The position numbers and the translations under genes were made by a program. A model generated the notes under the pieces. The model did no database searches. It was not told where the DNA came from and was given only the letters and a program-made list of their open reading frames with translations. A stretch of DNA of 64,000 nucleotides from Cyanidioschyzon merolae. Taxonomy: Eukaryota. This document shows positions 34,802 through 56,104 of this stretch, piece after piece. The stretch lies in the NCBI GenBank assembly GCA_000091205.1, contig AP006493.2; one strand, written 5' to 3'. The first letter of the stretch is position 1. Each line of letters starts with the position of its first letter.

Positions 34802-37053
34802 GGTAGTCGGAAAGCCGGTTACTTGCGAGCAGGTGCAGCGCCAGATTTCGAGCCCAGTCGTGGACAACACTGCTTGTGGGCCGCTCGGCTGACGACTCAC
34901 GACGGTGAAACAGGCCGCGCATGCCTCTCTGTGCAATAGATGGGCGGGGAGCAACTCATCAAAGCGCTTGATGCTGTCGCCAGCATGCCGAGGCGATGTG
35001 AAACACACGCGGCTTACGAAATGGAAACGAGTGAGGGCATATCGTGAAGGGCAAGCGCGCACGCTTTATGCGTTTCTCGTCCACCTCGCCAATGGTAATG
35101 CATCTGCCATCCAGCAAGGTGCAGTGCGCAGTTCGATTCAGTCATGATGCGGACACTGCGTCGACCCGAGCAGGCGGGAAGGAAACTGTTCCGGGCGCTC
35201 TCGATTATTCCGTGCACGGATCATATGTCCAGCGACAAGTGCCCTATTTGTGAGCAGGGAAGCCAGTCGCCTCGAGTTTACGCGCACAAGGGCACGGCAA
35301 GGCTGACCTGTCTCGGTGCTGCGTCCATGACGGCACCTCAGGCTTTAATGCGGACGCGTACGGCAGGCTCTGCGCCCTGGGGATCTGACGAAGGAACCAT
35401 TATCCTCAGAGGCGAGCCAGCATCATCGTGGCCCATGCAACGTGAAAGCCTCTTGCGGGATGACGGGTGGCTCCCCAGATGCCGATCGCCATCGCGCAGT
35501 ATGGCGGATCCCTGATTCGAGTAAACGATCCAACATCCCCAAAAATAAGGAAAATCAGCCTCCTAGCATGATGCCTCCCGTAACCTTGCCCAGGCATCAA
35601 TTCGCTTGCTATTGTCAGAGTATCGTATCATTTGTGCCGGTGGGTGGACTGCACCGGTGAATCGTCGCATGCCGCCACCTTGGAGGACGTACCCGGTAAA
35701 CCTGGTCGCATCATCTGTGGCCACAGATCGATCACAGCTACTGCGCGCTCCATGCAGTCGCTTCATAACGTAGTATTTCGTCGATGCTGTGAAGACTTGC
35801 CGCATGCACAGCGACTGATTCGCCTATCACGTCACCGAACTGCTACGCAGGCCTTTCTTCGGGAGCGCATGCACCGCGTGCCCCGAGTTCGACAGATGCA
35901 ATAGCGATGCAACGGACGCCAAATCGCTCCGTTCGTTCGCGAGAGAGCAATGGCACTCGCGAGACCTCTGTGGCGCTCACAAAACCATAGCATCATGCCA
36001 GGACATGCTGCACTTGGCGAGCGGTGCTATGCAACGCTGGCGAACTTGCGGCAACGACATTGCCATAACCGGGTGGCTCCCGAAAACCACCGACCGGATC
36101 GAGAAGCAGCTGGTACACAGTTCGAACTTTCTTATCTTTGCGCAGGAGTCCGAATAGCTCTACGAGCATACATAGCGGTTCAGGATAAACAGGGACTCGG
36201 CAAGCACACCAGAATTTGTTGTCATTGGAGTGTTCAGGCTGGTGCTTGCGACTTACGCGCTCTGCTGTGAAAAGTCAAGTTTTGGCGCACTGCCACCCTT
36301 TTCAGCCAAAGCCCAGAATCCGTCGATAATTGCTCGGTTCCGGGTCCATGAACATCGCCGACTATAGCCTTCATTCACTTCTACTGGCCAAGCTTGCTCC
36401 AGTCTGAGCTGGGCGTTCAGTCTAAACACGCTAACCGCAAGTAGATTGCACGGTATTCGGTAGATGTTCATGAGCAATTTTGCGTTCACACATCCCGGAT
36501 GTCTGACGTTCTGTCAGGGAACCCAGCCGAGCTACATGCGACGTTCAATATCACGGTCTTTCGCAGCTCAGCAGAGCGCTCAAAGCTGACAAGCGGGTAT
36601 CGCGCGTTCCTTTCCAAGACATGGGCCCAAGAGACCCATTGGCTGATGCATACATCCAGAATCTTGACAAGAAGTGATATTTAGGATCAATGAGCCGTGA
36701 CGATTCATAGACAATAGACTAGCCTGGTGTCTGCTTCGTTTGGCGAAGCGTCAACGAGCTACGCTAGTGGGCGCTAGTCCATCAGCCTAGAAACGTCACG
36801 CACTGACCAACGGTGTCTTTAGGCTAGGTAAACCACACGGAACCTTGGCACAGCTCATTCTTTGCCCTGATCTTCGCAACCAGTCAACTGGTCAACGAGG
36901 ATACGCACCATCCAGCCAACCGGTTACCAGTAACGTCCGCTATGCACACAAGGAGGATTCTCTGGCGCGTGCACGCGACGGCTGCCGTCGTCAGTGCACA
37001 ACAGCCAGTGTCGACACCAGACTTGCTATTGCGGTTGCAAGTGACCACAATCT

Positions 37054-38616
37054 ATGGGGCGAAACCGGATATCGCAGCTCGCGATCGTTCAGATCTTGAC
37101 TCTCGTTGTCTACTGGCTGATCTTCGCGGTGAGTGTGCAGTCGGTTGAACCAAAGCTCTGCGGCGGAAAGCCGCTTGCCGGTGGCGGCACACTTTCCCGT
37201 CACATCAGCAGCCGAAGCACGCCCCCGGTTGGACGTCAACTGCTGGCTCTGGTCGACGGAGAGACCTCGTCGTATTCCATTCTTTTTGGTGTACTTAGAG
37301 ATAGGGGCTATACAGTGACCGTGCGCACACCAAAAGACCGTTCTCTGACACTCTGGAACGAAGCAGGAACGCACTATCTCTATGACGCGGTGCTGCTTCT
37401 GGCACCGTCCATTAAAGGATTTGGTAGGGACGGTACCGCAAATGCTTTGCTCGATTTCGTGGACGCTAATCGGACTCTGATTATGGCCGCATCACCAAAC
37501 GCTGGCGCACTCTTCAGGTCGTTGGCGGAAGGCATCGGTCTCGAGCTCGACGAGGCAGGAACAGTGCTACTGGATCACGTGCGGGCAGCGCATCGAAGCG
37601 GAGCCGGGCAGGACACCGAAGGCTCGAGGATATTTCTGGTTGATCCGAAACCTTGTCCATCCTTGGACCTGGGGGCGACCCTTCCATACTGGGAGAAGGA
37701 AATGCCCCAGCGTCCGCTACTGTTTGCCAACGCGACCGGGTCCCTGGTCGCTCCTAAGCAGGATTTGCTCCGCCCGGTACTGTGCGCACCAGCCACAAGC
37801 TACTCCTATGAAGACGGCCAAGTAGTCGAAACGGATGAGGATGCAGCGCCCTTCACCATTGGCACGGAGGCCGTTCTGGTTGCTGCGCTCCACGGCCGCT
37901 ACGGCGGACGTGTTCTATACATCGCATCGACAGAAGCGCTCCAGGATCGCTTGATGTCTGGTGAGCATGGAAACCGAGCATATTTCGAGGATCTTTTTAC
38001 ATGGGCCCTTGGGGAACGGGGGATTTTGCGGATTACCCGAGCAGAGCACCGGCATGTGCCGCAGGGAAACGAACGGCCGCGCTCTACTCCGTATCGCGTC
38101 GGAGATCGACTCCGCTTTGAGCTTTGCGTGGAAGAGTGGGACGGTCGACAGTCGCAACAGCGCTGGCGACCCTGGCTCGGAGGTAATGAACCTCAACTGG
38201 AGTGGGTCATGTTGGACCCGTATGTGCGCACGAGCCTACGAGCAACGAAGGATCAGGGCTGCTACGCCACCGAGTTTGACACACCGTCGAAGCACGGCCT
38301 CTTCAAATTCCGTATTGAGCACTTTCGCGACGGCTACACTCCACTGCTCTTGTCTCAGGTGGTGCCGATCCGTCCTTACTGGCACAACGAATATCCGCGG
38401 ATGCTGGTACGCGCGTATCCCTACTATGCAGCTTTATTTTCAACCATGATGATTTTCTGGATCATGGCCTACGCAGTTCTCTGGAAAGGGCTCGTCTCAT
38501 CGAAGCGACTTGGAATCCAGACAACATCTAGGAGTCCGCACGCGACCGTTTCTTCCAAGGATGCAGCGGCGTCCTCTACCGAAGACTCTGACGCTGACCA
38601 CCAGAAACAAGAGTAA
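37054..38616 (+). CDS. DDOST: oligosaccharyltransferase 48-kDa subunit (OST48/DDOST/WBP1)
   Basis: N-terminal signal segment; LALVDGETSSYSILFGVLRDRGYTVTVRTPKDRSLTLWNEAGTHYLYDAVLLLAPS…LIMAASPNAGALFRSLAEGIGLELDEAGTVLLDH matches the conserved luminal domain; C-terminal TM. The stop codon is TAA. Confidence 0.8.
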   Translation: MGRNRISQLAIVQILTLVVYWLIFAVSVQSVEPKLCGGKPLAGGGTLSRHISSRSTPPVGRQLLALVDGETSSYSILFGVLRDRGYTVTVRTPKDRSLTLWNEAGTHYLYDAVLLLAPSIKGFGRDGTANALLDFVDANRTLIMAASPNAGALFRSLAEGIGLELDEAGTVLLDHVRAAHRSGAGQDTEGSRIFLVDPKPCPSLDLGATLPYWEKEMPQRPLLFANATGSLVAPKQDLLRPVLCAPATSYSYEDGQVVETDEDAAPFTIGTEAVLVAALHGRYGGRVLYIASTEALQDRLMSGEHGNRAYFEDLFTWALGERGILRITRAEHRHVPQGNERPRSTPYRVGDRLRFELCVEEWDGRQSQQRWRPWLGGNEPQLEWVMLDPYVRTSLRATKDQGCYATEFDTPSKHGLFKFRIEHFRDGYTPLLLSQVVPIRPYWHNEYPRMLVRAYPYYAALFSTMMIFWIMAYAVLWKGLVSSKRLGIQTTSRSPHATVSSKDAAASSTEDSDADHQKQE

Positions 38617-39353
38617 GTCGCCTGTAAGACGGGTGTCCCTTGCGATGACCCCGGCTTCATAGCACATCATTCTGGGCAGGGCGGGTTCGCACTTGTACGA
38701 AGAGCAGTCGTGCACAGTGTGCGCGCAGCGTAGCGATATAGTCGCAAATGAAACGCTAGCGCGCGGGGCTCGCGGTGCCCAGGGTTTCAGCAGTAGCGAG
38801 CACTCTGCTTGTTGACGAAATCGCGCGCTGGAGGAGAACAAGCGCCCCCGACGCATGCTCTGATTTTTGGTTCAGGGCAGTCAACGATATACGAGGCAGG
38901 AGAGTTCCAAGTACGGTGGCTCGAGTCAACGCTCATGTTGCGAGGTTCATCGCATCTATTCGCGTTGAGCCTCGCGAGAGATAAAAAGCTGCATCTAGGC
39001 CAGGGTAATAGTGACCGGCTGCTCTACAAATGCGCTCTCGTTGAGGCTTCAGCTTTTAACGTTGTAAACAGTATTTGGATTAGCCTGCAGACACGGAATC
39101 TTTACACCTGTCAAGAAGCTCGTGTTGCTTTTGGGCCCTTACAGTGATTGACACTTGGCATGAACGTCCTTGAAAGCGCCAAGCCGCTGGGCGCTGCACG
39201 AGGCCTCGTTTGTGCACGCGCGTACGCAAGCGGGAAAAGCTGGGCAATGTGCCGCTCTTATCTGTTTCTCGACTGGTGTCCGGGTAACATCGTCCAGGTC
39301 TGCAGGTTGCCTTTGGGATGTACTTCGCGGTACCCAAAGAATAGAAGATGATT

Positions 39354-41402
39354 ATCGAGTACCAATGGCCCAGGAGAATCGTTCTTGATGTTCATATGTA
39401 GAGCGCTCCAGTTGTGCTGGATTGCTCAATAGCTCCATCCCGGTGCCGTGCTTCGAATGAGAATCCAAAGCGCTGTCACTTCATGACGGATTCTATTCCA
39501 TCGGAGCGTTTCGGCATTTCACCACATTGCCTAGACCGATTCCTCCACAGTTCAATCGAAAGATCGCTCGGCACCAAGGCGCTGGGCGCCCCGAAAGCAC
39601 GCGACATTCTCGGATATCCATCAGGGTGTTCAAGTCGAGATCCAGAGAGAGATAGAGAGAGACAGAGACAGAGAGAGCTCGCGTGCATGCTTGCCGGTGG
39701 AATCGTACCATAGCAGGCCGCTCATTTTCGATCGCCTCCCCTGATGACATTTGCTCAGCTTCGTGTTCGCCATCTCGTGCACCAGACTCGCTCTGCTTCA
39801 CGCTCGTTTTCTCGGCAGGTTCCGGCTCGTACTCGCGCCCGTGATGCACCCTTTTGTGGTCTCGAATCCATCGATGGGAATCGTGCAGGAATCGATTCTG
39901 GAGTTGTTGAGTTGTTGCAAGCTTTCGTCGAAGGCACAGGGCGGTACCCGTCGCACGCTACAGCGTGTCCAGCGCCCTACGCTACCACCGAGCGACGCGA
40001 CTTGTCAGGCCCAGCCTTTTCCATTTCATTCCGGAAGTTGGTGAATGCGCGATTCTTGCCTCTGCGCAACCGCATCGCGGTCTCTTGGACGCTTGCCGGA
40101 GACCTTTCGCATCAGCAGAGTGAACGCTCAAGAGCACACTGAATGAGGCACGGGAAGCGTCCGTCTCTCCCGGACGCGGTGCACGGGGTGTCGAGACGGC
40201 TCACGCTGCCGTCAGTCAGCTTGCTGGCGGTTTGTCTCTCGGCACCCATCGGATCTGAACCGCAATCACATAGAGTCCTGGGGAAGTTGCGCAGGTGTAT
40301 CCACTTTCAGTTCATATCTTCGGACAAGTCCTCTCGATTGAGCGGTATGGCGGCGGTCATGATATATTCTGCAAACCGGGAACAACGCTCACCACAGAGT
40401 CTGGCTCCTCACTTGCCATGAACAGATGAAAACGAGGGTCGCTGTGCGACTGAGGCATAGGTTTCACAAAGTGCACGCTCGCTGGTATTCCATCGGTCTC
40501 CATGGTCGCTGGAAACCGCTTCTCAAGTGCTGCTTGCAAAGGAGAAACCTGGAACGAGCTCCGCCGATGCCCTACGCGAAGCTGTTCGCAAGAAGCACAG
40601 TTGCTCGCAGAGATCAGCTGCAGCTTACTCAGGAGGATATCAAGTAGGCGGCGCAAGGATCTATGCCGACATCATGGGTCTGTACCCGACGTACAGAGAT
40701 GACATGGAGTAGACGCTTCGGGAGACAAGGTCGCTCGGGTTCGGGGAGGGCGCCTCTACCGCGCTGCACCACTAGGCTCTGTGCTGCTCTGCAGCGCTCT
40801 GCTCTGGAATACGTCGCAGCGCAAGACGCTAGTAGGGCAGGCGTCACGTCTCAAGTATCCTTCGCGCACGACGGTTACCAGTCCGAGACCGAGAGCAACA
40901 CGATGCGCTTGGGTGGTATAAAACGTGTGTCGCTCTCGTTGCGACAGCTCTTCTGAACCCGCTCCATCTCGACCGCTGGTGGCTCCACCAGCTCGCCATC
41001 TGTCTTCATGAACAGACCCAAGAAAACCTTTCACCAGCGCCCAGTTTCCTGGGCCAGTAAGCGAATGCACAAAGGTCACAGGGTGCGCTTCACCAGGCGC
41101 TCCAGACTGGCTTGCATACTGTTTTCGTGTTCGAACCTAGTTTCGTACGTTTTGGCACCGGTTTCATCGATGTTGTCATAGAGGACGCGGTGCGACGAAG
41201 CGTGACGTTAGTCTGGGAAGTGTTTGTGTGCTAATCCCGTATCCGATTTTCAGACCTTGAGCCGTCTTGAGTCGCGAGCGTCAGCTGTGCTGCATCACGA
41301 GGGTTTCATCGAAACACTGCACAGAACTGAGGACCGCTCGCAACTCAGGTACCGTAACGCTTATGTGCAACTGCTAGGCAAGAAGTGTCAAGAATAAAGA
41401 AA
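39354..41402. repeat. large direct repeat DR2, copy A (about 2.05 kb)
   Basis: Offset 10302 bp from copy B. Every overlapping ORF translation between 39414 and 41079 is identical in the two copies, so the core is effectively 100% identical; the edges are slightly diverged. It contains a (GA/GAGA)n-like tract near 39645. Confidence 0.9.
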
Positions 41403-41479
41403 CAAGAAAAGGCTATATTTTGTAGAAAAGTGCTGAATGACGTCCAGCCACACAAGCTTTGCAAGATTCTTCCCATTGA

Positions 41480-41950
41480 TGTGTTTAAGGAGGAACGCCC
41501 TGACAAGAGCATCCCGCTGATGCTCCCCCTCCGACAGTTTTTTCTCGCTGACCTTCTTCACCCTCTATCCTAGATGATGTTTATCTTCTTCGTCTGGTAT
41601 TTCGTTCTCCTTATGCTTCGTAGCCTTCGCCTTTACTCAGCGGGATGGCGTTGGTGTGTTCTTCATACTTCAAAATCGTTCTTCCTCGAGTGTCATGCGC
41701 ACTGGATCGAGGATGGTAATGGAGCTCGCTTTTTTTCTTTAATGTATCTACAATTCCTCAGATACCTTTGCGTCATTTTCTCCGTCGCGAGCACAGCCAC
41801 GGAGCCAAGCGCGCATTTCCGCCCCCCATCTGCAAATAATCACAACAGCCCTAGACCAGAACAGGTCCGGAGAAGATAGAGAGCGATTTGCCAACGAGCG
41901 ATTTTACGGATGCAAACGACTCGTCTATGGATTAGAGGGTGTCAATACGG
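41480..41950. repeat. dispersed repeat R3, copy A (about 400-470 bp), directly abutting the end of DR2 copy A
   Basis: Aligns with 59460..59870 (…gggatggc…aaaatc.gtt.ttcctcgagt… and …gatttgc.aacga…gcaaacgactcgtc.atggat…ggcgtttg…). Confidence 0.5.
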
Positions 41951-43096
41951 CGTTTGGCAGCAGAGCATACGCAGGCACGAAGAATAGCGCAACACCATGC
42001 CCAGACCCGTGCTTTCCCAGCGCATTTCAGTGAAGGAAAGCGACCTCGTCTACGAGCAGAACAAAAGAATTTTCGCTGGACAAGCCACGAAAATTGCTTC
42101 GACAAAGAAGTATGGGATACCAATGGATCATTGTCGTTTGAAAATTTTTAGGCGACCAAATGATCGAAGCGCCTCTCGAGCTGATGCTGTCGGAATGCTC
42201 GCGTGTTTCTGTCGTACCCGCTGGGGTGTACCCCACTTGTACGCCAGCACGGATCGAATATTTCTCCCAAAGGACGTCTCATTGAGCGATATGAACACTT
42301 GTGCCGCATGCGGTAAGCGTTCGCATCTCAGGACGACATTGATCATGAGTTGTTCAACGCGCATCCTACCCGGATGGCGGCCAGCTTTTTTCCGTTCAAC
42401 CGATTCATTTCTGCACGATTCATCATATCGGTCCTGAATATTCTCATCCTGCTGGTTTTCTGATTGTATTTTTTAGAGAATGTATAGTAAGGAATGAATC
42501 GACGAGAAGCTGGCGTTTGGATAGCGTTTGATAACTTATGTGTAGTGTTCACTTCAATCAGGATAGGGGCTCAAACCGGGGCGGGTCATCCACCACCTGC
42601 TAGTCCTACAAAAACTGACTCGTGTTCATAAAGCCGCTTCTTGGCCAACTTGCTGTGACAACGTAACGTCCTTCCGCCAACCTTATCCAGTCTATAAGGT
42701 GCAAATCTTTTGTTGACTTCCAGTTACCAAAAGCAAGTATAAACAAGAACACCGTTTTCATCCAAGGATTCTACAATGCACCGTTCTGAGTATAACCCGA
42801 ACCAACGTATTCGCTCACAAATCCTCTACACGTACACCATTGTCAATAGAGGAGCACCACTGCACTGCGACAGGAAACAACATAGCCTCTTCCAGTCTGA
42901 AAAATCCCTCTATGCAACCAGAGAAGAGACAACGTTCATGACGTGGAATCCTGCACTTTTCCGCAACAGGGCGATCGCGATGTCAACGTCTCCCGGTTGG
43001 CCGAAACGTTCGCGGAGCAGACTCGCGGGCAACGTTCCACAGCGCGTTTAAGAAGACACCATTCCAGGGGCTCTTGTCCTGATTCACTCCTTCTTC

Positions 43097-46000
43097 ATGA
43101 ATATTGCCGCAGTTTATGTTCAGCGAAAGCGAGATGGTTATACCGTAGCCCGCTGGGAGCAGACGTGGCTCGCTCCATCTGAAAGCAAGCACTTAGCCTG
43201 GCGCGTTGCAAACTACTTCGACCCGCGTAACGTACACGAGCCTGCAACGAGTAGGTTGGAAACACTCATGGCAGAACAAGGCTTTGCTGAGTACGGCCTG
43301 GAGCACTTGGGTGCCGTGGGAGCCAACATCAGCGCCTGGTCAAGTGGAGGCTACTACCAACTCTCCAACCGCCGACTCGCGGGGAGCTACCCAACTTACT
43401 GGCTTGACCCTTTCGAGCTTGCCGTGTCTGAAAACCTCGGTTTGACCGGTGTCGATGCGGAAACTGGCAAACCAGTGGTTTCAGCGCTTCGTGTCTGTGT
43501 GCTGTGGGAGCGAGCGGACGGCCTCTCGGACACGTTAGCCGCGTACGACCTGCTCCACCGGGTGTCAGCGCTCGTTCGTCGATACGATCGACTATTCCAG
43601 TCCGACGTTTTGACGGGAACAGACGCCTCTGATCTATCGGAGTCAGATGAGGAGCTGACGGCGAGCGAGCTCGGACAACGCTGTCGTTTGAACTTGCTCC
43701 TGCAGTACTGTATGCAGGGTGTAGATATGGCGGACGTCGAAAAATGGGTCCAAAACGCTCCGCTTTGTCGAGAATACGATGGAAAAGCCATGAATGCGTG
43801 GCGAAGTCTCTGGGAACGAAAGGAACAGTTACGAGAGCGAGCATTGGCAACCGGCATCCTAAGTGCGGCGGAACTGATAGCTATAGAAAGCGCGAAGGCC
43901 ACCGAGGCACTAAACTCTTCCCAGACACCGGCAGTGGCATCAAAACCTTCGGAGGCAACACAGAAGAAGAAGCATTCCCGAGGGAAAAGGCACAAACGAG
44001 ACAAAGGAAGCAAGCATGCCAAGGAAGCCTCACCAGCAGCAACATCGTCACCCAAGGAGCAAACGGATCCGTTGCAGACCATTATCTTCACACGCACTGC
44101 TTATACGGATGCAACGTTCATGCAAAAAACGCGACAAGCAATCGCTGAAACCCTCTTCGGTACATCCCATGTCCCGGAGAACGAGTGGATGGAGGACTTC
44201 GCATACGCAAAAGCGCTCGATGTACCACCGGTGGAGGCTACCATTGATGATTGGCTCGCCATGCTGGATGCCAAAGCCGCAGAGGAACGAGCAACAGCAG
44301 AAGCAGCAGCCGCAATCAAACGAGTGAACTTGTGGCTTGTAGATGATGAATTCCTCGATCAGAATCCCGGGTTAGCAGCGGAATTGTTCGAGCGAGCACC
44401 CTATTTCGATGGTGAGCGCCTCCTGCAACGCGCATACGATGAATCGTTCTCTGAGCGTGCTTACGCCTATTTCCAGAACGTCTTTTACCTGTTGGAACGT
44501 GGTCATTTTAAGGACGCTCTGGCGATTCTCCAGGATAACATCATGGCTGGTATGGTGCGGCAACGCGTGCTTCGAACAAACCGCGTTCCGAGAGCGCCAG
44601 CGCCCGATTCAGCGAAGACCGAAACCGAAGCAGCCAACACCTCTGCGCAGCAACGTTCTCAGTTTGAGACGGCAGCGGGGCATTCGGCACCGCGGGAAGA
44701 CGTCCTCACCAGCGCTGCAGGTGCCTCCACAGCTGAACGCATGGACGCGCCACGGCAGGACGCTGAGCAGGCCATTCACTTTGCCACGATACCCCGAGGG
44801 GGCCAAACGCAGCCTCTCATCGAGGAAGTCGACGATGCGCCGGAAAGCGCTCCAAAGAGGGAAGCTCTGACGGCATCGGAATCGATGCAACTTACCTCTA
44901 CGGCGATTATCGAAGTGCTGCCCGATGAACAGACCGACGCAGGGTCAGCGCCGGAGCGCCAGACAACAGCACAAGCATTACCGGATGTCGCGGGTGCGGC
45001 TTCAAGCGAATCCCACGCACGAACGACCGGTACTGCAACGGAGAAACCGCACTCGGAACCGGATTCAAACACCTGGGAGCAGAGTGGAACGGAAACTGGT
45101 GTGAAAGCAGGTTCGGCATCGGAGCAGGAATTTGGCAGCGACGACCAGAGCGGCAGGCAAGCTGAAGCCCCGAAACCACGGGCTCGTTTGGAAACCACGG
45201 AGGAGGCGGTGCACCCCCAGGTCTCCGGACTCGGAGAAGAGTCGCAGGATTCGCTGCTATCGGCTGGCGAACATCGGGTTGCACACGAGCTGGTCAAGAA
45301 TGTGATCGACGCGGCACTTGGAGACGCTGTCGACAACGTGTATTCGGAAAACGCCACATTGTCCGCAGTGCCGATGCGATCGGGTCTGAACGAGGCCCCG
45401 ACTGCTGCTTCAGCGACCGTGGACACAGCCTTGGGGTGTCGGCGTTCCCGTTCGACACCGGACGGCGTTCAGGCAGCGTCTGATGAGGGATCGATCACCG
45501 AAACGACTCCACGGGAAGGTGATACCGTAATCGTTCTTGCGCTTGAATCTCAAACAGAAAGGATTTCACTGACAAGAGACGAGAGCAGCGCTCTCGATAA
45601 TGCAGCCACAGCTGGGGCGGTGTCGATTCTTGGTGATCGCGAAAGTCTTCAAGAGCAGCAGCTGGAGCGGATGCCTCTACAAACAATGACAACTACTGCG
45701 TACCAAACAGGTGCAGTTGACGGGAACGCTGCCAACGGGGCACTCGCAATAGCGGACTCGAGTGCACAGCAGCGTACGGGTTCCGAGTCATCATTGCCGC
45801 CTGAGAGCGAAGGACCCGACCCTTCACCAGACCACAAACGTCTTTACCTTCTCGGTTGCTGGTACAAGCTCGCTCTCCACATCCTCGAGAGAATCACTTC
45901 ACTCGACCGAATAGCGACCGAGCAGCGTACGCGCTCCCGCCAGGGAGCCAACGTTCGCATGTCTCCCGAAGACGAGCGGGCTCAGGCGCATTTAAGCAAC

Positions 46001-46468
46001 CTTTTGGCGTACCTGCCGTTGCTACCCAGGCATCGTCAGGCTGCGGTCAATGTGAGTATTGAGAAAAACATGCAGCTGGGCAATTACGGCTACGCGAGAG
46101 GCTGGATCGACTGGGCCTACGACCGGTTCCCTTTTGCGAACAGTGAAGCGACGCGTGCTCGCTACGATCGTATCCTAGATGAATGTGAGGATGCAGCATG
46201 GCAGAACGAATACGTGGTCCCCGAACTTGATCGACTGATGGAGTACTACGGGCGTGGTGCTCTCAAACTACGCGAGTACCTCTTGCTTGCTCAAGAGGAG
46301 GTGAGCGGCCTCTGGAACCTGCCATCTGAGCAGCATTCAAGCGGATCTGAGTCGTCGTCATCGTCCTCGGGAACTGAAAGCGCAAACGAATCCTCTATTG
46401 AAGACGCATCTTCTGTAGAAGAAGATTTAGAAGGCATCGTGCTCAGCGACACCTCCAGTGATGCATAA
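43097..46468 (+). CDS. large hypothetical protein (1123 aa) with long disordered Ser/Ala/Glu-rich regions and an acidic Ser-rich C-terminal tail; no recognised domain
   Basis: A long ORF with complex, non-repetitive N- and C-terminal blocks (…YFQNVFYLLERGHFKDALAIL…; …GWIDWAYDRFPFANSEATRARYDRILDECEDAAWQNEYV…). Confidence 0.45.
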   Translation: MNIAAVYVQRKRDGYTVARWEQTWLAPSESKHLAWRVANYFDPRNVHEPATSRLETLMAEQGFAEYGLEHLGAVGANISAWSSGGYYQLSNRRLAGSYPTYWLDPFELAVSENLGLTGVDAETGKPVVSALRVCVLWERADGLSDTLAAYDLLHRVSALVRRYDRLFQSDVLTGTDASDLSESDEELTASELGQRCRLNLLLQYCMQGVDMADVEKWVQNAPLCREYDGKAMNAWRSLWERKEQLRERALATGILSAAELIAIESAKATEALNSSQTPAVASKPSEATQKKKHSRGKRHKRDKGSKHAKEASPAATSSPKEQTDPLQTIIFTRTAYTDATFMQKTRQAIAETLFGTSHVPENEWMEDFAYAKALDVPPVEATIDDWLAMLDAKAAEERATAEAAAAIKRVNLWLVDDEFLDQNPGLAAELFERAPYFDGERLLQRAYDESFSERAYAYFQNVFYLLERGHFKDALAILQDNIMAGMVRQRVLRTNRVPRAPAPDSAKTETEAANTSAQQRSQFETAAGHSAPREDVLTSAAGASTAERMDAPRQDAEQAIHFATIPRGGQTQPLIEEVDDAPESAPKREALTASESMQLTSTAIIEVLPDEQTDAGSAPERQTTAQALPDVAGAASSESHARTTGTATEKPHSEPDSNTWEQSGTETGVKAGSASEQEFGSDDQSGRQAEAPKPRARLETTEEAVHPQVSGLGEESQDSLLSAGEHRVAHELVKNVIDAALGDAVDNVYSENATLSAVPMRSGLNEAPTAASATVDTALGCRRSRSTPDGVQAASDEGSITETTPREGDTVIVLALESQTERISLTRDESSALDNAATAGAVSILGDRESLQEQQLERMPLQTMTTTAYQTGAVDGNAANGALAIADSSAQQRTGSESSLPPESEGPDPSPDHKRLYLLGCWYKLALHILERITSLDRIATEQRTRSRQGANVRMSPEDERAQAHLSNLLAYLPLLPRHRQAAVNVSIEKNMQLGNYGYARGWIDWAYDRFPFANSEATRARYDRILDECEDAAWQNEYVVPELDRLMEYYGRGALKLREYLLLAQEEVSGLWNLPSEQHSSGSESSSSSSGTESANESSIEDASSVEEDLEGIVLSDTSSDA

Positions 46469-46856
46469 CGCGCTCCACCAGCGCACAGCGTAAACATTGG
46501 CAGAAGCGGTATCACGAGAAGCAGGCACAACTGGGAGTATAAATCTGGCGTCTGGTGGGCGATCATCCCATGAGAGCATCCACGGGACCGGTCTCGCCCC
46601 GTTCGGAAGACATCCAAGACGAGACCTCTGCGACGACGACGAAGCTGCAAAGAGTCTCGGATCTGGCTTCGGCAGAATGCCGAGGTTCGGTACCCAACGA
46701 AACCGGTGCTTCCTCTGAAGCTTGCAGTACCAGATGACGGGTCTGGTACCAGGCGGATCGCGTTCCTTGATCCGGGATCGAATCAGGTGTTCCGCAGCGG
46801 AGAACTTGCTCTTTCACATACAAATCCATGCTCCTGATCAAGGGTGTGAGGTTGTT

Positions 46857-49130
46857 TTACGAGTCTCCGGCGCGAGACGATGCATGCGACGCTGGTAGAC
46901 TGCTCTGCAAATGCCGCTGGGTCAGTCGCAGAGCGTTACGCTCCTCCAGCATGGCCACATAGGGACTGGATAAGTAGGTGCCGGTGCGCAAACGCTGCAA
47001 CGTAGCCTCGTGGATATGTAGATGGACTCGAAGGAGCGCCAGATCTCGCTGAAGCTGTCGGAAGCGTGTTTCATAGACATTGCAGGTCGTACACATGGCA
47101 TCCGCATTCGCGGTGCAGCTCGGAACATCCAAGGCTTCTGTCGTTCCCGCGTTCTTGTCTACAGCATCGCAAAACGACTGCTGCCAGCCCAGGTAGACGC
47201 AACTCGAACGAAGCCAGTCGAGTTCATTCCATAGTCGAAACCGCCGATCACTCACATGTGCCCGTATTCGCATTCTCCATAGACGAATCTGCGTCTGGAG
47301 ATGTTCCAGCTCCTGTCGACCGTGCTGTTCCAGCTGTTCCAGGGCAGCAATCGCTCTCTCCCATCGAGTTGCGGCTGTACAGACGGTTGAAGCTCGCACA
47401 TGGCGAGACTCCGAGACGGCGAGCGCCGTGCTCGCGGTCAAAGCCGAAGCTCGCGCCTCTCCGTGATGAGCAGTGTTGCTCGTTGATTCGTCAAGAACCC
47501 TGTCCTGGTTCGCGGAAAGCGTGTCACTTTCGACTGATGGACGCTGCTGATGCCTGTTACGCTTCTCTGCGCTGTCCGTCGCTATGAATAGCGTCGCAAG
47601 CGTCTGCGGAGACGTTGTGGCGTTGAGCGCAACATGCTCATTCATAGAGCGTTGTCCATTCGTATTCTCGTCGAGACCTGAGCCTGCGCTTTCCAGCAGC
47701 GGGCCTGATACGGGTTCCGCATCCGCGATTCCGGTGGTTTCTAGGGCCATCCTCACTGCTTCCTCGTTTGCTAGTGCATGACCCAATGGTTCTGACATCG
47801 ACACCGTGGGCCTCTTCGCGACTTCACCTTGCGATGTTGCGATCCGACGCTCTGCTGCTGCATTCTCGTGCAGCGCTGCTGAGCTGTTCTGCCGTGATCC
47901 CACCAGGCTCGCCGGTGAAGGCCGCATGGGATCAGCATTTCCATAAGATTGCGTCTCCGTTGCTAGAGCTGGCGTCCTCAGGGTTTCAGGCACAGAAATC
48001 GTTGTTGCATTCGCTGAAAAATCCGTATCGGCTTGTGCTGCGGATGGCACAACGTCTTCGTCTGCGTGAAGCATCGCTAGCGATCCTGCAACGTTGCTCG
48101 CGTGCTCATATTCACATACGCGATGTTCAGCAGTCTTCGAGCGCTTTTTGAGCTCCGAAGCATCCATACATTGCTTCACAGGTTCTGTGTCAGACATATG
48201 GGCCAGCATTCCCGTACCCGTGAACGCATGCTCCTCCTCGTGAGACGTTGATGTACCGCCATCGCCGACGACATGCTCTGGAGCATCCCCGTGCAATGCA
48301 TGTTCGTCAAGGAAATCATCGTCTCCGCTGGTCTCATGTTCATATCGAGGACTTGTCATCGAAGCGTATTCAGAGAGTGTCGGACTCGCGACTGAGCGGC
48401 TCGCTTCTGCCGAATTCCACGATGCGCTCAGGCTGCCTGCTCGAGATGCGAAAGACTCAAAAGTTTCCCGCTCCGCCGATTCTCTGGATGCGTCTTCATC
48501 CGATGTCGTGACTTCGGGCGACCTCGCTGGCGTTGCCAGCACGGCATTTGCTGGAGCACACGTTCCCTGTGAACCGCACTGTTCCGAAGAGCCAACCTGG
48601 GGTTCCAGCTTCGACTCCAGGGCGCTTTCGAGACAACGACAATCATCACCTGCACAAGCCGGACTCTGATCAGCGGCTGTTCTTCGTGCGTGTGTTTCAA
48701 GCGATGAGTGTGAGCCATGGGTACCAGGTGCGCGCTCCTTCGGCAGCGTCTGCGAGGTTTCAGAGTCTAGTCTGGTCGATCGAACCCCGTCTTGGCCTTC
48801 TGACTGCTTTCGGACCAGCTCGCGTTGCCACTGGCGCCACGCAGTACGCTCAGAATCCAGTCGCAAACGTCGCTCATAGAAGGGCGATAGGAGCGGCTCT
48901 GCACCACACTCGGTACAACAGCCGCAGAAGCGCGACGCAGGGATGCCGTAGCTCCGAGCCATATTTTCCCGGTTCTTCGCCGCTTGCTCCTCGAAAAGCT
49001 TACGAATTGCATCCATGCTGGAGCGTCCGGTCAGCCTAACGACCGGTAGCGCGAGCTTCAGCTTTGCGCAGAACGAGGGCCGAATCCCTGCGGGTCCGTG
49101 AGGCACCGGGAAACCCCCGCGAGGCTGCAA
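46857..49130 (-). CDS. hypothetical protein (757 aa), Ser/Ala-rich and low-complexity, with a coiled C-terminal region
   Basis: A long ORF convergent with 43097..46468. No family recognised, and the composition bias raises the chance that part of it is spurious. Confidence 0.35.
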   Translation of the reverse strand: MQPRGGFPVPHGPAGIRPSFCAKLKLALPVVRLTGRSSMDAIRKLFEEQAAKNRENMARSYGIPASRFCGCCTECGAEPLLSPFYERRLRLDSERTAWRQWQRELVRKQSEGQDGVRSTRLDSETSQTLPKERAPGTHGSHSSLETHARRTAADQSPACAGDDCRCLESALESKLEPQVGSSEQCGSQGTCAPANAVLATPARSPEVTTSDEDASRESAERETFESFASRAGSLSASWNSAEASRSVASPTLSEYASMTSPRYEHETSGDDDFLDEHALHGDAPEHVVGDGGTSTSHEEEHAFTGTGMLAHMSDTEPVKQCMDASELKKRSKTAEHRVCEYEHASNVAGSLAMLHADEDVVPSAAQADTDFSANATTISVPETLRTPALATETQSYGNADPMRPSPASLVGSRQNSSAALHENAAAERRIATSQGEVAKRPTVSMSEPLGHALANEEAVRMALETTGIADAEPVSGPLLESAGSGLDENTNGQRSMNEHVALNATTSPQTLATLFIATDSAEKRNRHQQRPSVESDTLSANQDRVLDESTSNTAHHGEARASALTASTALAVSESRHVRASTVCTAATRWERAIAALEQLEQHGRQELEHLQTQIRLWRMRIRAHVSDRRFRLWNELDWLRSSCVYLGWQQSFCDAVDKNAGTTEALDVPSCTANADAMCTTCNVYETRFRQLQRDLALLRVHLHIHEATLQRLRTGTYLSSPYVAMLEERNALRLTQRHLQSSLPASHASSRAGDS

Positions 49131-49655
49131 CGTCCCCAGAAGCGCCCTCAGCCCTGTAAAGACAGTAGCTTGAGCGTACCGAACAGCTCAAAGTATTTGA
49201 TGCTGCACACGAGGAGTCAAGTTGCCGGTTAAGGTTCCGAACGAGTCGAGGGCCAAGAACGCCAGTTACGAGTTGCGCATCTTCGCGGTCCCGTTTACGC
49301 CCTGGTGCGGTGGAACGTGGACGTTCGTTTGGAGAATCCGCAAAAGGCCGCGAGAGTATCTCAAAGCCTCAGGGACGCTTCGGACGCGACTCTGCCAGGG
49401 AATGGGTGCAAGTATTGAAGAAATTTGGGATAGGTCGATATGATGCAGCCGCTGGTAGGGACCCCTGGCGTCGCAGAGCATGCGGCACGTGTGGCCCACG
49501 CTACACGTTGCCAGGGCAGCGCTCCAAGGCACAGAGACGATATCGGTATCACGAGACCCCGGTAGTGACGTGTGACAATAGCAGAGCGGGGAACGTGTTT
49601 TATGGTGTTGATTCGCTGGCCTAAACTCATTCATATCGAATGATGGAACATCATG

Positions 49656-51704
49656 ATCGAGTACCAATGGCCTACGAGAATCGTTCTTGATGTTCATATG
49701 TAGAGCGCTCCAGTTGTGCTGGATTGCTCAATAGCTCCATCCCGGTGCCGTGCTTCGAATGAGAATCCAAAGCGCTGTCACTTCATGACGGATTCTATTC
49801 CATCGGAGCGTTTCGGCATTTCACCACATTGCCTAGACCGATTCCTCCACAGTTCAATCGAAAGATCGCTCGGCACCAAGGCGCTGGGCGCCCCGAAAGC
49901 ACGCGACATTCTCGGATATCCATCAGGGTGTTCAAGTCGAGATCCAGAGAGAGATAGAGAGAGACAGAGACAGAGAGAGCTCGCGTGCATGCTTGCCGGT
50001 GGAATCGTACCATAGCAGGCCGCTCATTTTCGATCGCCTCCCCTGATGACATTTGCTCAGCTTCGTGTTCGCCATCTCGTGCACCAGACTCGCTCTGCTT
50101 CACGCTCGTTTTCTCGGCAGGTTCCGGCTCGTACTCGCGCCCGTGATGCACCCTTTTGTGGTCTCGAATCCATCGATGGGAATCGTGCAGGAATCGATTC
50201 TGGAGTTGTTGAGTTGTTGCAAGCTTTCGTCGAAGGCACAGGGCGGTACCCGTCGCACGCTACAGCGTGTCCAGCGCCCTACGCTACCACCGAGCGACGC
50301 GACTTGTCAGGCCCAGCCTTTTCCATTTCATTCCGGAAGTTGGTGAATGCGCGATTCTTGCCTCTGCGCAACCGCATCGCGGTCTCTTGGACGCTTGCCG
50401 GAGACCTTTCGCATCAGCAGAGTGAACGCTCAAGAGCACACTGAATGAGGCACGGGAAGCGTCCGTCTCTCCCGGACGCGGTGCACGGGGTGTCGAGACG
50501 GCTCACGCTGCCGTCAGTCAGCTTGCTGGCGGTTTGTCTCTCGGCACCCATCGGATCTGAACCGCAATCACATAGAGTCCTGGGGAAGTTGCGCAGGTGT
50601 ATCCACTTTCAGTTCATATCTTCGGACAAGTCCTCTCGATTGAGCGGTATGGCGGCGGTCATGATATATTCTGCAAACCGGGAACAACGCTCACCACAGA
50701 GTCTGGCTCCTCACTTGCCATGAACAGATGAAAACGAGGGTCGCTGTGCGACTGAGGCATAGGTTTCACAAAGTGCACGCTCGCTGGTATTCCATCGGTC
50801 TCCATGGTCGCTGGAAACCGCTTCTCAAGTGCTGCTTGCAAAGGAGAAACCTGGAACGAGCTCCGCCGATGCCCTACGCGAAGCTGTTCGCAAGAAGCAC
50901 AGTTGCTCGCAGAGATCAGCTGCAGCTTACTCAGGAGGATATCAAGTAGGCGGCGCAAGGATCTATGCCGACATCATGGGTCTGTACCCGACGTACAGAG
51001 ATGACATGGAGTAGACGCTTCGGGAGACAAGGTCGCTCGGGTTCGGGGAGGGCGCCTCTACCGCGCTGCACCACTAGGCTCTGTGCTGCTCTGCAGCGCT
51101 CTGCTCTGGAATACGTCGCAGCGCAAGACGCTAGTAGGGCAGGCGTCACGTCTCAAGTATCCTTCGCGCACGACGGTTACCAGTCCGAGACCGAGAGCAA
51201 CACGATGCGCTTGGGTGGTATAAAACGTGTGTCGCTCTCGTTGCGACAGCTCTTCTGAACCCGCTCCATCTCGACCGCTGGTGGCTCCACCAGCTCGCCA
51301 TCTGTCTTCATGAACAGACCCAAGAAAACCTTTCACCAGCGCCCAGTTTCCTGGGCCAGTAAGCGAATGCACAAAGGTCACAGGGTGCGCTTCACCAGGC
51401 GCTCCAGACTGGCTTGCATACTGTTTTCGTGTTCGAACCTAGTTTCGTACGTTTTGGCACCGGTTTCATCGATGTTGTCATAGAGGACGCGGTGCGACGA
51501 AGCGTGACGTTAGTCTGGGAAGTGTTTGTGTGCTCATCCCGTATCCGATTTTCAGACCTTGAGCCGTCTTGAGTCGCGAGCGTCAGCTGTGCTGCATCAC
51601 GAGGGTTTCATCGAAACACTGCACAGAACTGAGGACCGCTCGCAACTCAGGTACCGTAACGCTTATGAGCAACTGCTAGGCAAGAAGTGTCAAGACTAAA
51701 GAAG
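49656..51704. repeat. large direct repeat DR2, copy B
   Basis: See DR2 copy A. Confidence 0.9.
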
Positions 51705-53018
51705 CTACGTAACCAATCATGGCATCCTGCATCTTTCGGTGCCAAGCTTGTGATCGACTTGTGCTCTGACCTCTGAACGTAAATGGTTTTTGATGACAGC
51801 GTACATGACATTGACCGGATTAAACTAGGGAGCGTAGACCGACACGAAGAGCCGCTCAACATCAATCTCCGCAGCGCACTCCTTGACAGCATTTTAAATA
51901 CAGAAGGCGACGTTGTCGCGGAGCAGAAGAGACGAATACGGGAAGTGAAAGCCACGACGTGCTTCTACGACGGATGAGATATTGAGCGTTCGTATTCTAC
52001 TTGGGATTTTTAGGCTACAACACGAGTTGTGTACATGCACAGGTCTCCCATACCAACCAAATGAACGCTGATAGAATCAGATGAAACCCGTCCCTTTTGC
52101 AATTCGCGGTCGCGTTCAAGTGTGAAATCGAGAGTGTGTTGAACAGCGAACAGACTTCTCGCACAGAAGCGTACATATTTCTTTTCCCGTCTGTGTCGCT
52201 TCATAATCGTTCATATCAATGGTATGGAATATCACGTCCTGTTGCTTGTATGATGGCATTTCTTTGCGCACGCACAGAGTGGAAGGGATTGACGAGGGTA
52301 CCATGGGTACATAGCGTTTGACCTTTTCTGGTTTGGGTGCTCGACGTTCACAACAGGAACAAGCGCACGGATTGCTCAACCACCCGCTGACTATAGAATG
52401 AATGACGCGACGAGTACTGTCGTTTCTCGACAAGCTAGCATTGGCGTCACAGACAGCTCTACGCGACCATTTTCCAATCTAGAGGATATACTCCTTTTGT
52501 TGGATACTTGCCGAAAAACAGACAACGACAAAGAGAGCGTTGCTGTAATGATGTACGAGATTTCACTGCTCTGAGTATAACTGCATTTGAGTAGCATTCT
52601 GTAGGAAAAAGCGTTCAATAGTGCTCACCTACCAGCTTCAAACGGTGTGCGATGAGCGCCTAAATGCGCTCTCCCTCTTGAGCCTTCCTGGAGCAAAGGA
52701 CTCTCCACAGGACTGGAAATATACGCATGTACACGTCCAATAGAGATATTGAAATGCTTCCGAGCTATGAGCAGCCAGCATCTCTGAAGAACACAGGAAA
52801 AGTGCGCATACGTACGACCAAGATCGACGTGTCACTGTATTCGCGCAGTTGAGCTGCGACGTTCTCTCTAAATGGACAACAACGACGCGCATTTCGTTGT
52901 CCAAATATAAAGCGTTGACATTTTTGAACGTTTGCATTCCTTGAAGACTCACGAATTTGGTCCAGTCTTCCGCTGCACATGATGCGGCCCGAGTCGCCAT
53001 CCAGGGCGCTCTTGTCCC

Positions 53019-54425: not shown

Positions 54426-54650
54426 GTCACCCCTGATCATGAGTGCCGCCACTGGTGCAACGCAAGTTGGTTTCGTCCCTGATGCGCGTAATCGAATACT
54501 TTTTCGCAGTGTAGAGCCGGAGATTGAAATCCCGATGCAGTGTACCGTATAGATCGCAGACGAACTGCCTGTAAGGTGTATTCCTTACTGAGCCGTGTAA
54601 CGATGACTGCGTTCCTCATCCAGGTCAGTCATACCATAGTAATCTAATGG

Positions 54651-55758
54651 TTGAGGAACACTGAAAGAAACAAGCACATGCGCACGGCGCCAAAAACAGA
54701 TATTCTCAAAGCGTGTTTGCGATCAACGGTAGAAAAAGACCCATCGATCACCTTGCGGAACGAGAAACTGACGGTGATGGCCACCATGGGCCTCTACATC
54801 GCTCAACAGCTTGTTCGTGTGGCCCTGGAAACACTGGGGCACAGTTACGTGAAAAGAGTCCTAGTTCACGCACAGTCATCTTCCACTGAAATCGGAACTC
54901 TAGTGTTCCTGGACGTCGCGATCCGTATAAAGCAGAGGAGCGTCGATTTGTTTCTTCAGTCGATGAGGCTTGCGTTGGACGAACCGTACAGAGCTGATAT
55001 AAGTATTGGCAGAGAGAGAGCCCATTGTATGGATGATTGAACTCGAAGAGAACGACAACATCATCTATTCTAGCTGCAGAGGATTCATCTGGCTGCCTCA
55101 GTTTTGCTCGCAAAGAAGGCTCATACAACAGAGCCCACTTTTTCGAGTCATTGAAGACTTTTTCCTTTACGTCTGGCGACGTCCTTCTATTGCACAATGT
55201 GGCGTTTCACCATTCCCCTTGCGTTCGAGCTTTTGCCAATTCTACCAGGGGGTAGAGCTGTTTTACATTCCTCTCTACGCTCCGTGATTCAACCGCCTCG
55301 AACAAGTGTTTTCTATCGTAAAACGTAATGATCGCTCCACTTGGCGAATCGCTGCGTGGCTCAGCACGGTGACACTGGGGCGCATGTCGTCCTTCTTCCG
55401 CAAGTCTTGTTCGCTCCCGGTAGGTCGTCACCTACGGGCATGAAAAAGTGCGTTCATGTTCAAGGAAAAAATCCAACGGAAATTTAAGGACATGAAAGGC
55501 AAGGATCCCGGAGAGCTGTCATCACCGGGTGTCGGAAATTCAAAAAATCCCCTGCTCGCCGACTATGGAGCGAATGAGAGGAGGGAGAAGAGGAGAGGTC
55601 GACGAGAAAAAGTGTCTGCCGTACCGGGCGATGTCGAGCCTATAGTGGCACTGAGAGCACGGGCTCTAGCAATCCTTGCATTGGTGAGTTCAACCAGTGT
55701 CAACAAACGCAAGGAGTTCATGACCAGAGACTTCAACGCTGTTATCAATATCAGATGA
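54651..55758 (+). pseudogene. decayed Fanzor nuclease ORF remnants of copy 3 (pieces 54651..55040 and 55456..55758; no RuvC-I)
   Basis: Sense-frame amino-acid conservation with copy 2 is about 60% over the aligned piece, higher than in the antisense frame. The RuvC-III motif is intact but the upstream frames are broken. Confidence 0.45.
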
Positions 55759-55896
55759 TGTGCGGTGCTGAAGACGAGACCCGAGGAGCTGACGCGAACG
55801 AACTTGATGGGGCAGCCTCCCAGGCTCGAAGCGTACAGCCAAACACTGAAACTGAGAACAAGCAGCCGGTAAAATAGGCTGGGAGGCATCCGCGAG
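55700..55896 (+). ncRNA. candidate omega-RNA scaffold of copy 3; the putative guide is 55897 onward (ggggcatctatttaccctgcatcg…)
   Basis: Aligns with 9480-9676 and with the rc of 18185-18385, ending at GGGAGGCATCCGCGAG. Confidence 0.3.
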
Positions 55897-56104
55897 GGGG
55901 CATCTATTTACCCTGCATCGTCGTAAAACATTTATCGTTCCATGCGAAGAGAGCGCGATCTTCATGGACCGCCTCGAGCACCAGGCGTCGCACTGATGGA
56001 TCATGGTCGTGATACCTCGCAGCTGGGCAAAACCACGTCTAGTCCGGTGAACAACCAGTTTCGTACGATTTGTTCGGACCCGAGTAGATCACACGTGGCC
56101 GGCA

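Follow-up and report, generated by a model that had tools for sequence, protein, structure and literature searches.

We analysed a 64-kb window (64,000 nt) of the Cyanidioschyzon merolae genome (GCA_000091205.1, contig AP006493.2), a part of chromosome 11 of strain 10D with CMK locus tags, in which a pair of near-identical direct repeats, DR2a and DR2b, encloses the gene CMK109C and its convergent neighbour. Each DR2 copy lies within an older and longer element of a dispersed transposon family, and the high-identity tract stops abruptly inside these elements, beyond which the two are no more alike than any other members of the family. The same arrangement occurs in other strains. We consider it probable that DR2 is the Fanzor1 half of two neighbouring dead elements that has been homogenised by ectopic gene conversion or templated repair, the mechanism and direction of which we infer from the tract limits, the spacing of element parts and the distribution of variants between strains. 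The enclosed genes, whose order is conserved in other cyanidiophytes, are ordinary host genes.

Structure of DR2 and of the elements that contain it

Self-BLASTN and base-by-base comparison aligned DR2a (39341-41401, minus strand) with DR2b (49643-51703, minus strand) in one ungapped alignment of 2061 nt at a constant offset of 10302. The copies are separated by 8241 nt, and the period of the repeat unit is 10.3 kb. They differ at 9 of the 2061 positions (99.56% identity), with six mismatches within the first 33 nt (39343, 39347, 39350, 39353, 39371, and 39373) and three within the last 169 nt (41233, 41366, and 41394). The full mismatch list, together with a table of variants across strains, delimits a 100%-identical core of 1859 nt at 39374-41232 (partner 49676-51534). 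The original prediction had described 2.05-kb direct repeats with an identical 1.67-kb core and, at both edges, a few substitutions and a 1-bp indel. The pair, the identity of the core and the edge substitutions were confirmed, whereas the repeat limits had to be corrected to those given here, the core proved longer, and there is no indel between the copies, because the offset holds along the whole alignment. By our own calculation, a stretch of 1859 nt free of differences has a probability of ~1e-9 if the nine differences are distributed uniformly over 2061 nt, and chance is excluded as the source of the core. Within DR2, a GA-rich microsatellite, GAGAGAGATAGAGAGAGAC (39646-39663 and 49948-49965), carries 14- or 18-nt deletions in several strains.

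Sensitive BLASTN searches within the window revealed that DR2 is collinear with three further loci, DR1, E13, and E58, at 55-63% identity (E 1e-24 to 1e-45); 20 shuffled queries gave 0 matches and coding controls gave none. Members of this family are intergenic, ~2.5-3.5 kb long and share conserved termini. The diverged member E58 (58273-60735, minus strand) served as the reference for element structure. E13 (13007-14600, plus strand), also diverged, is mostly a transposase remnant, and DR1a (22851-25438, plus strand) is a whole element in the opposite orientation to DR2, with a 98.45% identical copy, DR1b (29302-31887, plus strand). The two elements that contain DR2 were designated Ea and Eb. 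Element Ea (39337-42796, minus strand) comprises, from the left, DR2a with the Fanzor-side element end and the decayed Fanzor1 gene, a spacer, and the remnant of a DDE_3 transposase (~41964-42295), and it closes at 42796 with the family terminus ...GAGTATAAC; its segment 41625-42796 matched E58 59539-60735 with E=3e-45. Element Eb (~49623-52581, minus strand) contains the same tract, DR2b, and a transposase remnant at ~51789-52436, and its segment 52030-52581 matched E58 60188-60735 with E=1.5e-27. Both elements thus show the same order of Fanzor-side end, dead Fanzor1, spacer, dead transposase, and transposase-side end, with all genes on the minus strand. Taken together, the alignments point to a diverged (~57%) interspersed family of dead two-gene transposons, of which DR2 is essentially the Fanzor1 remnant. 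The predicted ancestral element, of ~3.1-3.4 kb, encoded a transposase with helix-turn-helix (HTH) and DDE_3 domains, followed by a same-strand Fanzor1 gene running to the element end.

Fanzor1 sequences of this family are too divergent for Pfam: neither the individual open reading frames (ORFs) of DR1 and DR2 nor the six frames of a three-sequence Fanzor-half consensus gave a significant match. DR2 could therefore be linked to Fanzor only through the published CMe-1 protein and the intact second gene (ORF2) of relatives found in public contigs. In these relatives the transposase is followed on the same strand by an ORF2 of 546-624 aa, the C-terminus of which contains the TnpB/Fanzor motifs ...VPVDEFRTT... 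and ...NRDLNAAINIRRC, and which is 39% identical to the Fanzor1 of CMe-1 over 666 aa (E=3e-150). When CMe-1 was used as a tblastn query, matches interrupted by in-frame stops were obtained in DR2a at 40075-39788 (residues 537-634, E=3.5e-7) and 41061-40363 (residues 197-437, E=3.9e-4), with the equivalent matches in DR2b at 50377-50090 and 51363-50665. Further matches were located in DR1a (24174-25013, E=2e-13), in DR1b, and in E58 (59485-58778, E=3e-9). The ORF2 of the relative L022 matched at the same places in both DR2 copies, both DR1 copies and E58; a PDB sequence search with this protein gave no usable match. A 359-aa ORF in DR1a (24018-25097) is a Fanzor1 remnant, broken in DR1b by a 2-nt indel. 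The Fanzor1 motif D...[TS][TS]..C4 zinc finger..RD, which holds the RuvC-like catalytic residues, was not present as an intact ORF in DR2, and by our reading the DR2 translation has ...PWCRAIFRLNCGG where NRDFNAAINIRRC is expected. DR2 is a Fanzor1 pseudogene remnant encoding no functional Fanzor, because its longest ORF is 132 aa, the frame is interrupted by stops and the motif is replaced.

In the transposase half, DDE_3 was matched weakly when E58 was scanned in six frames against Pfam (~59850-60041, E=0.0069), a majority consensus of five right halves matched DDE_3 in a single frame (E=1e-9, 38.8 bits against a cut-off of 28.6), and a frameshift-corrected consensus reached 53.6 bits for DDE_3 with a weak additional HTH_Tnp_Tc3_2 match. 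The transposase consensus retrieved intact HTH+DDE_3 (PF13358) proteins of 292-305 aa from public contigs (E=3e-58, 100% coverage). With a DDE_3 transposase carrying an N-terminal HTH, the family consensus has the features of the Tc1/mariner/IS630 group. The intact transposase of L022 matched Ea at 42295-42179 and 42083-41964, Eb at 52436-51789 (residues 19-259, E=1.4e-8), E58 at 60590-59814 (E=1e-19), and E13 at 13035-13826 (E=4e-20). In Ea and Eb these remnants lie outside the DR2 tract, and they are frameshifted with many stops. No convincing terminal inverted repeats (TIRs) were detected among the C. merolae copies. L022 has a 34-nt imperfect TIR at the contig ends (71% complementary), and its terminus GTTATACTC corresponds, as reverse complement, to the terminus conserved in C. 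merolae; a TA adjoins the conserved terminus in L022, Ea, Eb, and E58.

The relatives themselves are apparently intact two-gene elements in Logan contigs, with a 292-298 aa HTH+DDE_3 transposase followed by a Fanzor1-like ORF of 546-624 aa. L022 (SRR32481250) is 3384 nt long with 50% GC, and L023-L025 (SRR13287422 and others) have 37% GC. Very tightly spaced genes for a Peptidase_M11, a kinase, and a 2OG-oxygenase are also present on L023.

Tract boundaries and exchange between the copies

The identity profile of Ea against Eb is ~100% across the tract and drops to ~50-60% beyond 41401/51703. The right, transposase part of Ea (41402-42796, minus strand), which lies outside DR2, is 57-61% identical to Eb 51704-52581, with 57% between 42230-42796 and 52020-52581 and 61% between 41963-42163 and 51830-52025; the two transposase halves are as distant from each other as they are from the remaining members of the family. 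At the opposite end, each element keeps its own diverged terminal 33-50 nt. The limits of the tract are sharp and lie inside older elements, as at the boundaries of interlocus conversion. Gene conversion, which was among the options named in the original prediction, gives the best reading of a high-identity tract that stops so abruptly inside old elements of ~57% identity.

The four junctions of the DR2 copies with the left flank, the enclosed genes and the right flank all recur in independent contigs from JGI metagenomes, ENA and Logan that are ~99.2% identical to the window. The junction of the left flank with DR2a is covered by L006 and L011-L014, that of DR2a with the genes by L011-L013 and L018, that of the genes with DR2b by L004, L007-L010, and L015-L017, and that of DR2b with the right flank by L007-L010, L015, and L017. 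A further contig, L019, spans both DR1 copies. One MEGAHIT contig (L005) corresponds exactly to a repeat node at 39374-41401, the shape expected of a genuine two-copy repeat. Contigs carrying the DR2 ORF show the a and b contexts only, with the exception of the odd contig L014, and a 40-mer scan of metagenomes for DR2 found only two contigs, each in a known a or b context. In L014 (JGI 3300050390, 14,465 nt), 31844-41202 of the window is matched at 99.3%; its first 680 nt and everything past DR2 position 1862, including a DUF547 gene, do not occur in the window, and the final 145 nt ahead of the right junction are only 95% identical to DR2. Either further repeat copies have made this contig a chimera, or it reflects a real rearrangement that another strain has undergone.

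Comparison with these strains bears on the timing. The edge differences at 39343, 39347, 39350, 39353, and 39373 are copy-specific and common to all strains, and both DR2 copies therefore predate the strain split. Strain 10D is diverged from the other strains by ~0.8% in the flanks. In the core, copies a and b of 10D share states at 40867, 40914, and 41167 that are found in no other strain, and 10D differs from most strains at several more core sites, while the number of core differences between its own two copies is 0. By our estimate, on the order of at least 15 differences between a and b would be expected in 1859 nt had there been no homogenisation in the 10D lineage. Paralogs within 10D are more alike than orthologs between strains, a comparison in which only the 10D copies are independently resolved and those of the metagenomes may be collapsed. 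In another strain (L016), the A that 10D copy a has at 41233 is present in copy b, which would fit an exchange between the two copies. We read 39374-41232 as the most recent conversion tract in strain 10D. The identity of a and b within metagenome contigs was also considered as a sign of concerted evolution and was downgraded, since a de Bruijn assembler that resolves an A-R-B-R-C loop uses the collapsed repeat edge more than once.

The direction of copying was assessed from the spacing of element parts. In Ea, the transposase end (~41805), the spacer, the Fanzor start (~41505-41580), and the tract boundary (41401) are spaced as in intact elements. In Eb, transposase residue 259 lies at 51789 and the tract boundary at 51703, coordinates by which ~360 nt between transposase end and Fanzor start would be missing at the right boundary of DR2b. 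Because this spacing is intact in Ea and ~360 nt short in Eb, Ea would be the donor and Eb the recipient, and the right junction was probably non-homologous. Under conversion, an old element in the same orientation would already have been present in each of the intergenic regions beside CMK109C and its neighbour. A 2.06-kb tract would then have been copied non-reciprocally between them, probably from Ea into Eb, starting ~35-50 nt inside the Fanzor-side terminus and ending ~100-180 nt into the Fanzor ORF as counted from its start. At least one later and recent event in the 10D lineage, again ectopic gene conversion or templated break repair, would have re-homogenised 39374-41232. Such a course is plausible because C. 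merolae is a haploid alga known from the gene-targeting literature for efficient homologous recombination.

Concerted evolution by ectopic gene conversion is familiar from yeast Ty/delta elements, duplicated genes and segmental duplications. DR2 resembles these systems in its near-identical tract with abrupt limits in older diverged paralogs, in its greater divergence at the edges, and in the closer similarity of paralogs within a strain than of orthologs between strains. It differs from the canonical case in that its surroundings are only ~57% homologous, so that initiation driven by homology is not obviously possible. This is the first of the points that weigh against conversion: homologous recombination between sequences of ~57% identity is hard to initiate, and the start of copying is left unexplained, although the first event may have been microhomology-mediated or may have taken place when the copies were younger. 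Secondly, nothing can be concluded from a and b being identical within metagenome contigs, given the collapsed repeat edges, and the case for conversion consequently depends on the Sanger-finished 10D copies being correct. Thirdly, the assignment of donor and recipient draws only on spacing arguments. Finally, L014 joins DR2 (to 41202) to an unrelated DUF547 locus, which hints at a further partial copy elsewhere or a chimera.

The second repeat pair in the window, DR1, flanks CMK101C and RRP36 in the same layout as DR2, with its copies 6.45 kb apart. Over 2588 nt, DR1a and DR1b differ by 38 substitutions and a 2-nt indel that are evenly spread, and this pair, with 1.5% divergence, looks like an older event of the same kind. 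The true transposase-side terminus of DR1a, TTTCTGTACATAAC, lies at 22828-22850, 23 nt beyond the tract, and no recognizable terminus of its own was found for DR1b past the tract on that side. Real conversion and assembly collapse are inseparable in the four-way site patterns of DR1 (22 '0011', 21 '0111', 15 '0100', and 4 '0101'). A tandem repeat of two 91-nt units is present in both copies (24922-25103 and 31371-31552, 90-94% identical).

The two tracts share one anchor point, the Fanzor-side (omega-RNA) end of the element, with DR2 starting ~35-50 nt inside it and DR1 reaching it. A speculative version of the conversion model, which we regard as improbable and for which there is no specific support here, would make the homogenised tracts footprints of RNA-guided homing by Fanzor1. 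An active Fanzor1 acting in trans would cut a resident element at or near its Fanzor-side end, and the break would be repaired by inward copying from the nearest related element. Bacterial TnpB has been proposed to drive gene conversion between transposon copies, and the homing reading, if true, would provide natural evidence that eukaryotic Fanzor nucleases do the same.

Other origins of the repeats and the enclosed genes

The alternative that survives best, though we judge it unlikely, is a recent local transposition or partial replicative copy, in which a Fanzor-only, non-autonomous derivative or a truncated copy of Ea, the truncation arising by abortive gap repair or one-ended transposition, was inserted 10.3 kb away beside an old transposase remnant. 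Fanzor-only elements are mobile in C. merolae, where CMe-1A has ~150 copies and no transposase (PMC3627910). The Fanzor-side terminus is the common starting point of the DR1 and DR2 tracts, which fall short of the other end by 23 nt and ~1.4 kb, respectively, and the missing terminus of DR1b would fit a truncated insertion as well. However, DR2b lines up exactly, by order as well as orientation, with an old transposase remnant that belongs to its family, a collinearity improbable for a random insertion. Moreover, both copies keep their own diverged terminal 33-50 nt, the Fanzor gene that was copied is already dead, neither a poly(A) tail nor a target-site duplication (TSD) is visible, and, apart from L014, the contigs and the 40-mer scan place DR2 in no contexts other than a and b. 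Retro-copying of element transcripts, which would account for a shared 3' end and a truncated 5' end, was likewise rejected on the lack of a poly(A) tail or TSD, on the collinearity of DR2b with the transposase remnant and on the diverged termini of the copies.

A segmental or tandem duplication of the block of DR2 and genes, followed by deletion of the second gene pair, would explain the direct orientation and short spacing of the repeats, and the DR1 pair with the same layout 6.45 kb apart could be cited in its favour. We nevertheless think it has little chance of being correct. It requires an additional precise deletion, the limits of the tract fall at or within element structure and not at arbitrary points, and the element halves outside the tract are anciently diverged. 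A weak further argument is that the intermediate R-B-R-B arrangement occurs in none of the contigs seen.

An assembly artefact, whereby a single copy was placed twice or two diverged copies were given one consensus in the 10D reference, had been left open by the original prediction. A collapsed consensus would yield a core of 1859 nt without a single difference. Yet an artefact confined to the 10D reference is very unlikely, because independent contigs cover every DR2 junction; in addition, the copy-specific edge variants are reproducible across independent assemblies, the repeat node L005 has the form expected of two true copies, and Sanger reads were used to complete the 10D genome (PMC1955436).

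The enclosed genes bear on the last alternative. CMK109C (43097-46468, plus strand) encodes 1123 aa and is a conserved cyanidiophycean gene whose sequence cluster includes BAM80492; the ORF of the window has the 10D residues at three positions that set CMK109C apart from a Logan variant. Its neighbour (46857-49016, minus strand) converges on it and encodes 719 aa from an ATG at 49016, which is likely the true start as judged from metagenome contig calls and ortholog alignment; the longer 757-aa ORF (46857-49130) begins from a TTG at 49130. Two large convergent ORFs of 1123 and 757 aa without recognizable domains had been noted earlier, and indeed neither has a Pfam domain or a usable PDB relative by profile search; for CMK109C, an alignment of three sequences gave a poor AlphaFold2 model (mean pLDDT, the model's per-residue confidence, 36.4). 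The earlier description of the genes as lineage-specific did not hold, in that they are neither strain- nor species-specific. Orthologs of both were identified in Cyanidium caldarium (contig L003) and in a JGI cyanidiophyte contig (L001), those of the neighbour at 12984-14258 in L003 and 13634-15547 in L001, with its Cys-rich N-terminus and its C-terminus conserved. The CMK109C ortholog of L001 is 57% identical. In both genes the N- and C-terminal regions are conserved and the middles disordered, for CMK109C across three species.

The gene order in L001 and L003 runs from acetyl-CoA synthetase (ACS, minus strand) through a nucleotide-sugar transferase (plus), RRP36 (minus), OST48 (minus), prefoldin (minus), and Dus (plus) to the CMK109C ortholog (plus) and its convergent neighbour (minus), followed by a 333/337-aa gene (plus), ALG3 (plus), and the triose-phosphate translocator (minus). 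No DNA resembling DR1 or DR2 was detected in the fetched parts of these two loci. CMK109C and its neighbour are thus host genes in their ancestral place and orientation, not mobile cargo. The composite insertion or excisable cassette suggested originally, in which two repeats mobilise the 8.2-kb gene pair, can be dismissed as highly implausible because the genes keep their place and orientation in L001 and L003, where the fetched loci show no repeats; the origin of the flanking repeats from transposons would favour it, but the genes for transposase and Fanzor are both dead, the transposase remnants being frameshifted with many stops, and DR2 lacks the transposase half and the transposase-side terminus. 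A circular-looking contig, L018 (Ga0080006_1087329, 10,410 nt), extends from DR2a position 14 to DR2b position 134 with ends that overlap by ~121 nt, giving a 10.3-kb period. Its circular look would speak for a cassette, but by our reasoning it has the shape that a graph assembler outputs for an unresolved repeat loop, and this is the simplest explanation; the contig does not testify to a circle having been excised. The 10.3-kb unit could be deleted if the direct repeats recombined, an event for which we have no evidence. With direct repeats of ~2 kb around an 8-kb internal segment, the DR2 arrangement resembles composite transposons and long terminal repeat (LTR) retrotransposons. It differs from them in that conserved host DNA, still in its ancestral position, makes up the internal segment, there is neither gag/pol nor a functional transposase, and the repeats are only part of each flanking element. 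The internal ORFs contain no reverse transcriptase or integrase domain by Pfam, and no LTR elements are reported for C. merolae in its genome paper (PMC1955436).

Other ORFs of the window represent intronless eukaryotic housekeeping genes, including OST48, ALG3, the triose-phosphate translocator, Dus, acetyl-CoA synthetase, and seryl-tRNA synthetase. Exact protein matches to the 10D entries BAM80485, BAM80487, BAM80491, and BAM80495, together with BAM80492 for CMK109C, are compatible with an unbroken accession run, which, with the intervening accessions inferred, suggests that no annotated gene lies inside DR1 or DR2. An Rfam scan at gathering thresholds and a tRNA scan of the 64-kb window found nothing. 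Relative to L003 and L001, a block at ~32-39 kb with Dus (32321-33769), prefoldin (34043-34801), and OST48 (37054-38616) is inverted. It lies exactly between DR1b and Ea, which are oppositely oriented with their Fanzor-side ends toward the block, and the arrangement is compatible with inversion by recombination between inverted elements. The idea that DR1b and DR2a are repair patches at the inversion breakpoints was dropped; the inferred donors, DR1a (outer) and Ea (inner), show no consistent polarity.

Relation to known Fanzor elements

The C. merolae genome has been reported to contain 253 interspersed elements of ~3.2 kb whose truncated ORF bears a weak similarity to WSV486 of white spot syndrome virus (Nozaki 2007, PMC1955436), a description that the DR elements fit. 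A Fanzor1 element of the same genome, CMe-1A, has ~150 copies, some of them reported intact, a length of 3169 bp and a 734-aa Fanzor1; neither TIRs nor a transposase have been described for it, its classification was given as "classification unknown", and Fanzor was also listed in white spot syndrome virus (Bao & Jurka 2013, PMC3627910). We equate CMe-1A with the "novel interspersed repetitive element" carrying the WSV486-like ORF. The DR family resembles CMe-1A in its occurrence in the same genome as dispersed, intergenic elements of ~3 kb, with a Fanzor1 gene running to one element end and old, mostly decayed copies in which TIRs and TSDs are unrecognizable in C. merolae. In contrast to CMe-1A, it is more diverged (~57% between copies) and keeps a DDE_3 remnant upstream of Fanzor. 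Even at sensitive settings, the CMe-1A consensus gave no DNA-level match to DR1, DR2, E58, or E13, and the DR family is therefore a separate, older relative.

A copy of CMe-1A itself lies at 7237-9734 (plus strand), in a stretch of lower GC (48%). It is 87% identical to positions 650-3145 of the consensus and is a pseudogene, with a Fanzor1 frame 81.6% identical to CMe-1 residues 133-734 that contains 4 in-frame stops and a frameshift. The first ~530 nt of the CMe-1A consensus, a part equated with the short element TE-N2_CMe by Bao & Jurka (PMC3627910), have counterparts in fragments of 60-69% identity at 3083-3538, 10926-11195, 35255-35527, and 63839-64000. An inverted pair at 18138-19514 (minus strand) and 54509-55939 (plus strand), 67-74% identical with many 1-nt indels and non-coding by all-frame similarity, represents a member of a further related family: 54540-55425 matches an intact DDE_3 transposase in three frames (E=9e-37), and 55621-55893 and 18184-18530 match the CMe-1A 3' end and the Fanzor C-terminus. 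Short-period repeats were observed just upstream of the seryl-tRNA synthetase gene (17838-17954, 20- to 40-nt periodicity) and at 61153-61276 (imperfect, also matched in L003).

The order of a Tc1/mariner-type transposase followed by Fanzor1 is known from the Mariner-Fanzor1 elements PUl-1 of Pythium ultimum and PGv-1, which are ~3.4-3.8 kb long (PMC3627910). It is in this two-gene architecture that the DR family resembles them; L022 shares the order and has 34-nt imperfect TIRs with a TA adjoining the termini, whereas the C. merolae copies are dead, with eroded TIRs and TSDs.

The interspersed-repeat class and its link to Fanzor1 were already published, and DR2 does not represent a mobile cassette or a novel type of element. 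The modest additions are a mariner/IS630-type transposase remnant, a conversion tract confined to the Fanzor half, and intact two-gene relatives in public data. They connect the WSV486-like interspersed repeat of the genome papers with Fanzor1 transposons, and the older sub-family with its Tc1/mariner/IS630-type remnant suggests a class for elements that have been listed as unclassified. The near-identity of neighbouring dead copies would reflect ectopic conversion or templated repair at a ~10-kb scale in a haploid, recombination-proficient alga, a point that matters when gene targeting is designed near such repeats and when wild strains are assembled from short reads. The intact relatives L022 and L023-L025 may offer starting points in the search for Fanzor nucleases.

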